This document shows positions 28,560-46,057 of a stretch of DNA of 64,000 bases, piece after piece. The position numbers and the translations under genes were made by a program. The stretch lies in NCBI RefSeq assembly GCF_044647545.1, contig NZ_CP172818.1; one strand, 5' to 3'. Position 1 is the stretch's first letter, and the number at the start of each line of letters is the position of its first letter. Below the pieces are notes generated by a model. It had not been told where the DNA came from and did not search any database. It saw only the letters and a program-made list of their open reading frames with translations. The stretch is from Escherichia coli (GTDB taxonomy: Bacteria; Pseudomonadota; Gammaproteobacteria; Enterobacterales; Enterobacteriaceae).

Positions 28560-28745
28560 TAATACCCGATCTTCTGCGCATCCTCGCGACTAATGACAAC
28601 CCTAACCCAGCCCAATGTGGGTAAAGCCTCTCATTAGCCGCGCGAACCTCTGCAACGGAAGATCATTCATAGCAACAATACATTAGTTTCCAGTGAATTG
28701 CTGCCGTCAGCTTGAAAAAAGGGGCCACTCAGGCCCCCTTTTCTG
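28560..28745 (+). ncRNA. psrO: PsrO (SraG) small RNA, approximate boundaries
   Basis: Recalled position of SraG in the rpsO-pnp intergenic region, opposite strand to both genes; no independent sequence signature verified. Confidence 0.35.
28713..28745 (-). terminator. rpsO Rho-independent terminator
   Basis: gaaaaaaggggccactcaggccccctttt hairpin 14 nt downstream of the rpsO stop. Confidence 0.7.
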
Positions 28746-42342: not shown

Positions 42343-44277
42343 TTACTTGTCGCCTAACTGCTCTGACATGGTGTTACCCGGGTTCGGCGTACGCGGTTCA
42401 TCAACCGGACGTGGAGCCTTTGGACTACCATTGTCGCCAGAATTGTTAGAAGCGCCTGGTTCTTCCCAGCCCGCTGGCGGACGTACATCGCGACGTGCCA
42501 TCAGGTCATCAATCTGCGGTGCGTCGATAGTCTCATATTTCATGAGAGCATCTTTCATCGCATGCAGAATATCCATATTGTCGGTCAGAAGCTGACGCGC
42601 ACGATTATAGTTACGCTCAATCAGTGCTTTCACTTCCTGGTCGATGATACGTGCAGTTTCATCGGACATATGTTTCGCTTTCGCTACGCTACGGCCGAGG
42701 AACACTTCACCTTCTTCTTCCGCGTACAGCAGTGGACCCAATTTCTCAGAGAAGCCCCACTGAGTCACCATGTTACGTGCCAGGTTGGTCGCAACTTTAA
42801 TATCGTTGGACGCACCGGTAGAAACATGTTCCGGCCCGTAGATGATCTCTTCTGCCAGACGACCACCGTACAGCGTAGAAATCTGGCTTTCCAGTTTCTG
42901 ACGGCTGGCGCTGATTGCGTCGCCCTCAGGCAAGAAGAAAGTCACACCCAGCGCACGACCGCGTGGGATAATCGTCACTTTGTGCACCGGATCGTGTTCC
43001 GGCACCAGGCGACCGATAATCGCGTGACCCGCTTCGTGGTAAGCCGTCGATTCTTTCTGCGCTTCCGTCATCACCATGGAGCGACGTTCCGCACCCATCA
43101 TGATTTTGTCTTTCGCTTTCTCGAACTCAACCATCGACACAACGCGTTTGTTGCCACGAGCAGCGAACAGTGCCGCTTCGTTTACCAGGTTCGCCAGGTC
43201 AGCACCGGAGAAACCAGGAGTACCACGGGCAATGATTGCCGCGTCGATATCGGGTGCCAAAGGTACGCGACGCATGTGAACTTTCAGGATCTGCTCACGA
43301 CCACGAACATCTGGCAAGCCAACCACAACCTGACGGTCGAAACGGCCTGGACGCAGCAGGGCCGGGTCAAGAACGTCCGGACGGTTAGTCGCGGCGATAA
43401 CGATGATACCTTCGTTACCTTCGAAGCCATCCATCTCAACCAGCATCTGGTTCAAAGTCTGTTCACGTTCATCGTGACCACCGCCCAGACCTGCGCCACG
43501 CTGGCGGCCTACGGCGTCGATTTCATCGATAAAGATGATGCACGGTGCCGCTTTCTTCGCCTGTTCGAACATATCACGAACACGGGATGCACCCACACCG
43601 ACGAACATTTCTACGAAGTCAGAACCGGAGATAGTAAAGAACGGAACTTTTGCTTCGCCTGCAATCGCTTTCGCCAGCAGCGTTTTACCGGTACCCGGAG
43701 GACCGACCATCAGGACGCCTTTCGGGATCTTACCGCCGAGTTTCTGGAAGCGGCTCGGCTCGCGCAGATACTCAACCAGTTCAGCAACTTCTTCTTTTGC
43801 TTCGTCGCAGCCCGCAACGTCAGCAAAGGTCGTTTTGATCTGATCTTCCGTCAGCATGCGCGCTTTGCTCTTACCAAACGACATGGCACCTTTGCCACCG
43901 CCGCCCTGCATTTGACGCATGAAGAAGATCCAGACACCAATCAGCAACAGCATCGGGAACCAGGAGATGAAGATAGAAGCCAGCAGACTTGGTTCTTCAG
44001 GCGGTTCACCGACAACCTTGACGTTCTTGGTCAACAGGTTATCCAGTAATTTCGGATCCTGAACCGGAATGTAAGTGGTATAACGGTTACTATCTTTCTT
44101 GGTAACGTTGATTTCACGTCCGTTGATACGCGCTTCACGAACCTGGTCGTTATTGACCTCTTGTAGGAAGGTAGAGTAATCCACCTTACGGCCATTAGAC
44201 TCGCTGGGCCCAAAGCTCTGGAATACTGACATCAGCACAACGGCAATGACCAGCCAGAGTATTAGGTTTTTCGCCAT
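42343..44277 (-). CDS. ftsH: FtsH ATP-dependent zinc metalloprotease
   Basis: ATG at 44277 ([16 protein letters not shown]), 644 aa. Confidence 0.95.
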
Positions 44278-44376
44278 GTCACTCAAGGGATTAACCTCTT
44301 ATTACAACTGTGTTAAAAACAGCGTCAGGATACTCTATATCCAGCATCTTTCAAACTTTCGTCTGAAATCTCCCGG

Positions 44377-45006
44377 TTAGGGTTTACGCCCGGTCGCTAC
44401 AATATACACTTCCCGCGAACGTGCACGAGAAGAGTCCGGCTTACGAACTTTGACCTTCGTAAACAGGGAGCGAATTTCCCTTAGATACTCATCGAAACCT
44501 TCGCCCTGGAACACCTTCACAACAAAACTGCCACCTGGAGCTAATACATCACGACACATTTCTAGCGCCAGTTCCACCAGATACATGGCACGGGGGATAT
44601 CCACCGCCGGTGTTCCGCTCATGTTTGGTGCCATATCGGACATGACAACCTGGACTTTGCTGTCGCCAACGCGCTCCAGCAGTGCTTTCATCACCAGTTC
44701 ATCACGAAAATCGCCCTGAAGAAAGTCCACACCAACGATAGGATCCATAGGTAAAAGATCGCAAGCGATGATGCGGCCTTTGCCGCCAATTTGGGTGACC
44801 ACATATTGTGACCAACCACCCGGAGCAGCACCAAGGTCGACAACCGTCATTCCCGGTTTAAAGAGTTTGTCACTTTGCTGTATTTCATCAAGTTTAAACC
44901 AGGCACGGGAACGTAACCCCTTTTTCTGTGCCTGTTGAACATATTTATCGCTAAAGTGTTCCTGAAGCCAGCGGCTGGAGCTGGCAGAACGCTTCTTACC
45001 TGTCAT
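44377..45006 (-). CDS. rlmE: RlmE (RrmJ/FtsJ) 23S rRNA U2552 2'-O-methyltransferase
   Basis: 209-aa ORF. Confidence 0.95.
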
Positions 45007-45072
45007 TTAACTTTCCCATTGGGATAACTCATCGTAACCAATTGCGTAAATTTTTACGCGCCTATTTGGTGA

Positions 45073-45108
45073 TATATGGGAGATGGCGGTAGAATGACCC
45101 GTTTTCAA
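45073..45108 (-). promoter_or_regulatory. Putative sigma32 heat-shock promoter of rlmE-ftsH
   Basis: Minus strand ttgaaaacgggtcattctaccgccatctcccatata resembles CTTGAAA-N(13-17)-CCCCATNT. Confidence 0.45.
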
Positions 45109-45131
45109 TCCCAACGTAAGCAAAAAATACG

Positions 45132-45425
45132 ATGAATCTGAGTACTAAACAAAAACAGCACCTGAAAGGTCTGGCACATCCGCTCAAGCCAGTTGTTCTG
45201 CTTGGCAGTAATGGTTTGACCGAAGGGGTGCTGGCCGAGATTGAACAAGCGTTAGAGCACCATGAACTCATCAAGGTGAAAATCGCCACCGAAGATCGCG
45301 AAACTAAAACCTTGATCGTGGAAGCTATCGTGCGCGAAACCGGCGCCTGTAATGTACAGGTCATCGGTAAAACGCTGGTGCTTTATCGCCCAACTAAAGA
45401 ACGTAAAATCTCGCTGCCACGCTAA
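45132..45425 (+). CDS. yhbY: YhbY, CRS1/YhbY-domain RNA-binding protein
   Basis: 97-aa ORF. Confidence 0.92.
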   Translation: MNLSTKQKQHLKGLAHPLKPVVLLGSNGLTEGVLAEIEQALEHHELIKVKIATEDRETKTLIVEAIVRETGACNVQVIGKTLVLYRPTKERKISLPR

Positions 45426-45503
45426 GATTATCCTAAAGTTACACACATTTGCTGTGTAAAACGAGGGGTTTTCCGCAGGCAGGAGAGCAAAATGCCACGC
45501 TCT

Positions 45504-45527
45504 GTTCGTTGATAAAAGGCCGCATAG
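45504..45527. terminator. Bidirectional terminator hairpin between convergent yhbY and greA
   Basis: aaaaggccgcatagcggcctttttcc. Confidence 0.6.
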
Positions 45528-45580
45528 CGGCCTTTTTCCTTTCTTTACAATACATCAACATCTTGAGTATTGGGTAATTC

Positions 45581-46057
<477 letters not shown>

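Follow-up and report, generated by a model that had tools for sequence, protein, structure and literature searches.

Background

Promoters read by sigma-32 RNA polymerase follow the consensus CTTGAAA-N(11-15)-CCCCATNT (PMC6699477). In dnaK P1, the scaffold of the sigma-32 open-complex structure, the arrangement is CTTGAA-N14-CCCCATTTA, with CTTGAA occupying positions -35 to -30 and the T of CAT standing at -10 (PMC10216364). The ftsJ-hflB operon of Escherichia coli is described as being under a heat-shock promoter, and RlmE, the product of ftsJ (rrmJ), as a heat-shock protein (PMC9927249; PMC11925731); for the promoter, Herman 1995 (PNAS 92:3516) and Nonaka 2006 (Genes Dev 20:1776) are cited in PMC9927249, PMC5493296 and PMC11925731. 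The second gene of the operon encodes FtsH, a protease that breaks sigma-32 down (Herman 1995 and Tomoyasu 1995, cited in PMC6629908); a negative feedback loop of the heat-shock response is therefore closed at this promoter.

Binding of both sigma factors to the DNA in front of this operon has been published. In genomic SELEX, RpoH holoenzyme on its own produced a 14.1-fold peak at the rrmJ/yhbY spacer, among the highest of that screen (Shimada 2017, PMC5493296), and ChIP-chip placed a sigma-32 region (SigH_324) and a sigma-70 region (SigD_1318) over the rlmE/yhbY spacer in vivo (Cho 2014, PMC3923258 supplement). Both methods resolve 100 bp or worse, a scale at which two -10 candidates 7 bp apart are not separable. 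The SELEX peak and the sigma-32 ChIP-chip region, together with the description of the operon in PMC9927249, bear out the known heat-shock regulation to which a first-pass annotation of the present DNA had appealed.

The site analysed here and the ftsJ(rrmJ)-hflB heat-shock promoter of Herman 1995 and Nonaka 2006 are alike in gene pair, organism and regulatory statement. It is this already described promoter and not a new one; the new part is a correction of its -10 element, and the published mapped start and -10 presumably coincide with the start at 45073 and the element CCGCCATCT proposed below.

Results

The window, by which we mean the whole stretch of 64,000 nucleotides analysed, is E. 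coli DNA; the 251 bp around the site have a match of at least 99% identity in 5425 of the 5426 complete E. coli genomes. Adding 3,282,658 to a window coordinate gives the coordinate in MG1655 (NC_000913.3). The minus strand carries rlmE (ftsJ/rrmJ; CDS 44377..45006) as the first gene of the operon and ftsH (hflB; CDS 42343..44277) as the second. The longest ftsH open-reading frame opens at a TTG at 44286 on the minus strand, three codons upstream of the RefSeq start, ATG 44277. The divergent neighbour yhbY occupies 45132..45425 on the plus strand, with its ATG at 45132, followed by greA (45581..46057) on the minus strand. The site falls inside the 125-bp spacer between rlmE-ftsH and yhbY, where the first-pass annotation had correctly put it.

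That annotation had read a sigma-32 promoter from TTGAAA (45108..45103) as the -35 and CCCATATA (45080..45073) as the -10, and both strings do occur on the minus strand at exactly those limits. The stretch from 45108 to 45073 reads TTGAAAACGGGTCATTCTACCGCCATCTCCCATATA, and the minus-strand sequence across the site is GGGATTGAAAACGGGTCATTCTACCGCCATCTCCCATATATCACCAAATAGG. The locus and the -35 element of the earlier reading stand, but its -10 lies 7 bp too far downstream, leaving a spacer of 21 from CTTGAAA (22 from TTGAA) where 11-15 is allowed, and the two strings taken as a pair do not match the sigma-32 consensus. Adjoining CCCATATA on its upstream side is CCGCCATCT (45089..45081, minus strand; consensus CCCCATNT), which is most likely the real sigma-32 -10 region. 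Its core CGCCATCT (45088..45081) agrees with the consensus at six of seven positions, with a spacer of 15 from TTGAA, and TCCCATAT within the first-read box also agrees at six of seven. The -35 element is ATTGAAA (45109..45103, minus strand; consensus CTTGAAA), agreeing with TTGAA at all five positions, and the promoter spacer comprises 45102..45090. In the proposed mechanism, sigma-32 RNA polymerase would read ATTGAAA as the -35, and CCGCCATCT would serve as the extended plus core -10.

With its TTGAAA -35 and a CCAT-core -10 followed by NT, the rlmE promoter is built like those of dnaK P1, groSL, htpG, lon, hslVU and ybeD; its spacer of 15, counted from TTGAA, is that of groS, htpG and clpP, and, like other E. 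coli sigma-32 promoters, it lies 60-130 nt ahead of the first gene. The traits of the sigma-32 class, namely the -35, the -10, the spacer length and conservation in orthologues, are thus all found at rlmE. Unlike consensus sigma-32 promoters, it has A in place of C before TTGAAA, and a G in place of the second C of CCCC (about -14). This extended -10 base, G45087 of the minus strand, recurs in 77 of 78 orthologues; an overlap with the candidate yhbY promoter may hold it in place, or the G may serve to tune the strength of the promoter.

The spacing of known heat-shock promoters was surveyed in 13 canonical MG1655 regions by taking the best pair of TTGAA and CCCCATNT in the 300 nt upstream, with the spacer left free between 5 and 30. 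A convincing sigma-32 site was found in 12 of them, hslR being the one region that yielded no convincing pair under these settings. The spacer was 14 in eight promoters (dnaK, lon, clpB, grpE, ibpA, hslV, fxsA and ybeD), 15 in three (clpP, htpG and groS) and 12 in one (htpX); for dnaK and htpX, long-spacer hits of 27 and 30 tied in score with the sites taken. For rlmE, the top score of 11/12 is shared by two pairs, TTGAA-N15-CGCCATCT and TTGAA-N22-TCCCATAT, and only the former falls in the canonical range of 12-15. Upstream of the CCCATATA box, no TTGAA-like -35 is present at a distance of 12-15 nt, and the 300 nt upstream of rlmE hold no further TTGAA/CCCCAT pair at canonical spacing.

When representative genomes were scanned for RlmE, 80 loci of Enterobacterales were recovered, ranging from Escherichia to Proteus, Budvicia, Edwardsiella and Zophobihabitans; 78 non-redundant upstream sequences were aligned. 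On the minus strand, identity was 0.94-1.00 across GGATTGAAAACGG (45111..45099), 0.87-1.00 across CATTCTACCGCCATCTC (45096..45080) and 0.87-1.00 across TATCACCAA (45074..45066), with the exception of A45070 at 0.54; the bases of the -35 element ATTGAAA were each conserved at 0.96-1.00 and those of CCGCCATCT at 0.94-1.00. The C, C and A of CCCAT in the CCCATATA box (45079, 45078 and 45077) reached 0.41, 0.27 and 0.32. NTTGAAA is retained in 77 of the 78 orthologues and CGCCATCT in 76, the two exceptions being CACCATCT and CGCCATAT, and the CCAT core of the 45088..45081 box is present in every sequence (78/78, identity 0.99-1.00). TCCCATAT, and with it a CCAT core at the first-read position, occurs in only 10/78, belonging to Escherichia, Citrobacter, Pseudocitrobacter, Superficieibacter and one Enterobacter, which speaks against CCCATATA as the -10. 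No insertion or deletion was seen among the 78 orthologues in the 44-bp block 45109..45066. These counts indicate that selection has preserved TTGAAA, CGCCATCT and their separation, and that it has not preserved the CCCATATA box. In principle, the invariance of CGCCATCT could stem from another function, since it lies inside the putative yhbY promoter described below.

A position weight matrix (PWM) was made from the 12 canonical MG1655 promoters, rlmE being left out. The rlmE -35 scored 7.82 bits; as a -10 alone, CGCCATCTCC scored 5.74 bits against 9.67 bits for TCCCATATAT of the first-read box. The corrected site totals a moderate 13.57 bits and ranks third in the 64-kb window at spacers of 12-16. 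Of sites that score 11/12 or better against the consensus, the window holds one at spacers of 12-15, where dinucleotide shuffles give 1.17, and two at spacers of 20-24, where shuffles give 1.3; for the exact pattern TTGAA-N(12-15)-CNCCATNT the expected number is 0.15. The 14-base string pair of the first reading is unique in the window with an expectation near 0, but this is a post-hoc exact match. We rejected motif rarity as evidence for a promoter, since consensus matching does not exceed chance (1 vs 1.17), and what supports the site is instead its spacing, its position, its conservation and the published binding. When the spacer was left unconstrained, the top PWM hit in the window was CTTGAAAAAAGGGGCCACTCAGGCCCCCTTTTCT (28711..28744, plus strand; spacer 17-18), which looks like an intrinsic terminator hairpin, a false positive of the motif-only scan rather than a sigma-32 promoter.

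Setting the T of CAT (45083) to -10, as in dnaK P1, predicts a +1 at A45073 (MG1655 3,327,731), within 2 nt either way and 67 nt upstream of the rlmE ATG, so that transcription of rlmE-ftsH would begin at about this base. T45074 and A45073 are conserved at 0.96 and 1.00 and form a pyrimidine-purine start context. A start 7 nt past CCCATATA, as the first reading implies, would fall at about 45066 (MG1655 3,327,724), whereas the corrected geometry brings it to about 45073, inside the box. On this sequence reading CCCATATA (45080..45073, minus strand), which is poorly conserved at 45079..45077, is most likely the discriminator plus start site and not a -10. The published transcription start site supplements that were searched contain no mapped nucleotide-resolution sigma-32 start for rlmE; those of Kim 2012, Ettwiller 2016 and the Salmonella ChIP-exo work have no entry for the rlmE promoter locus, and a full-text literature search with the promoter sequence gave no match.

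The rlmE leader has a predicted stem-loop, GCGUAAAAAUUUACGC, at 45043..45060 and 45036..45070 on the minus strand, near the 5′ end, and the conserved 5′ ACCAA of the leader can pair with a UUGGU further down. The palindromes found here in other genera differ, and most orthologues can form some stem. Some of the changes look compensatory (GCGUAA/UUACGC vs GUGUAG/UUACAC). Support for the structure is weak, the median z-score over the 78 sequences being only -1.1, and a conserved 5′-leader hairpin was set aside as support for the start site.

On the opposite strand, the same block carries a candidate sigma-70 promoter for yhbY. Its -10, TAGAAT (45090..45095, plus strand), fits TAnnnT and lies within the sigma-32 spacer, and its -35, TTGGTG (45066..45071, plus strand), lies 18 bp upstream. 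TAGAAT is found in 74 of the 78 orthologues, the others having TACAAT (3) or TATAAT (1), and variation confined to the third position of the hexamer is the pattern that would be expected from a working sigma-70 -10. At the -35 position TTGG(C/T)G predominates among the 78 orthologues. A generic sigma-70 scan of both strands of 44900..45250, which is unsuited to sigma-32, called no promoter; it missed TTGGTG-N18-TAGAAT because this -35 shares only three of six bases with TTGACA, at an 18-bp spacer.

If TTGGTG-N18-TAGAAT is the yhbY promoter, the two promoters would be interlocked, the sigma-32 -10 lying within the yhbY spacer and the yhbY -10 within the sigma-32 spacer, with the -35 of each just past the predicted start of the other. 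The minus-strand start predicted near 45073 and the plus-strand start predicted near 45101 are about 28-29 bp apart, so that the transcripts would diverge without overlap. Such interlocking would also account for the almost invariant, indel-free 44-bp block and for the conservation of the non-consensus G45087.

In symmetric bidirectional promoters, the -10 hexamers of opposite strands overlap and the starts lie about 18 bp apart. Bidirectional or divergent overlapping promoters of bacteria were reportedly treated by Warman et al. in 2021 in Nat Microbiol. The proposed rlmE/yhbY arrangement resembles them in placing two divergent promoters on one short stretch of DNA, where polymerases would compete. 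It differs from the symmetric kind in that its -10 elements are adjacent (45081..45089 and 45090..45095) and not superimposed, its predicted starts are further apart, and different sigma factors would be used. Polymerase competition between the rlmE and the candidate yhbY promoters would be a reasonable expectation.

Several further features surround the promoter. A 100-codon open-reading frame antisense to yhbY (45062..45364, minus strand; MTCTLQAPVS...) contains the whole sigma-32 promoter in its 3′ end. This frame is the counterpart of oloz4542, for which expression as an overlapping gene of E. coli O157:H7 and cotranscription with ftsJ-hflB have been claimed, with full-length copies said to be confined to Escherichia and Shigella (PMC9927249). 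A distal, apparently constitutive rlmE-ftsH start lies at about 45420..45460 on the minus strand, just past the greA terminator, and would be read antisense through yhbY: Mendoza-Vargas 2009 gives only a distal rrmJ start at -416 (about 45422), and Cappable-seq of EHEC gives a start 64 nt upstream of the ATG of the antisense frame (about 45428). The region of this distal start shows TTTACA...TAGGATAAT, and a consensus scan of it called no sigma-70 promoter. Between the convergent yhbY and greA, a strong GC-rich hairpin, AAAAGGCCGCATAGCGGCCTTTT (45514..45536), with T-runs on both strands, looks like a bidirectional intrinsic terminator common to both genes.

Discussion

Taken together, we consider it likely, with a probability of roughly 85%, that the site is the rlmE-ftsH sigma-32 promoter with its -10 corrected to CCGCCATCT and an expected start near 45073. 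The reading from which we depart, with TTGAAA (45108..45103) and CCCATATA (45080..45073) as the promoter pair and a start at about 45066, draws on the fit of both strings to the consensus, on the PWM score of its -10, which is the better of the two, and on the uniqueness of the pair in the window. We nevertheless give it the slimmest of chances: a spacer of 22 lies outside both the 12-15 of the 12 canonical promoters and the 11-15 of the literature, the sigma factor cannot touch both elements over 7 extra bp, no TTGAA-like -35 stands 12-15 nt upstream of the box to replace TTGAAA, and the CCAT core of the box is missing from most orthologues, in contrast to an otherwise invariant promoter. The lack of a -35 at a usable distance also counts against a pair of overlapping -10 elements, in which the extra CCCAT of Escherichia and its close relatives would provide a second, lineage-specific start, or would modulate open-complex formation or start selection. 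The restriction of TCCCATAT to those few genera and a similar CCCCATCTCTCCCACAT arrangement downstream of the htpG -10 favour such a role, but the poor conservation is in line with a discriminator that drifts neutrally, no experiment hints at a second start, and we regard this reading as highly improbable.

It could also be argued that the block is chiefly the yhbY sigma-70 promoter together with the site of an unknown regulator, that the sigma-32-like elements within it are coincidental, and that rlmE is driven from elsewhere or indirectly. The conserved TAGAAT and TTGG(C/T)G on the plus strand and the sigma-70 ChIP region over the spacer are in keeping with this, and chance sigma-32 matches of equal quality arise about once per 64 kb. 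Yet the spacer DNA of sigma-70 promoters is normally not invariant, while 45081..45089 is conserved at 0.94-1.00; the TTGAAAACGG block is invariant too, despite being downstream of where yhbY transcription is predicted to start; and the two blocks stand at canonical sigma-32 spacing. Moreover, sigma-32 holoenzyme alone selects the spacer in vitro, among its strongest targets in the genome, and within 300 nt upstream of rlmE there is no other canonically spaced TTGAA/CCCCAT pair. We regard a coincidental origin of the sigma-32 elements as very unlikely.

Conclusions

The practical value of the result is small, in that it confirms a textbook link by which sigma-32 drives the operon of its own protease, FtsH. 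For the reading of promoters from sequence alone, it illustrates that two good consensus strings make a promoter only if their spacing fits; here, the better-looking -10 string sits 7 bp out of register, adjoining the conserved one.

The interlocked candidate promoter of yhbY offers a modest lead on how ribosome-assembly genes might be coordinated in heat shock. One tentative idea, which we hold to be possible though unlikely, is that the interlocked promoters form a sigma-competition switch, in which sigma-32 holoenzyme bound at 45109..45073 would exclude sigma-70 polymerase from yhbY and the reverse would apply at normal temperature. If true, the invariant 44-bp block and the conserved G45087 would reflect joint optimisation of both promoters, and the switch would couple induction of an operon for an rRNA methyltransferase and a protease to repression of a 50S assembly factor.
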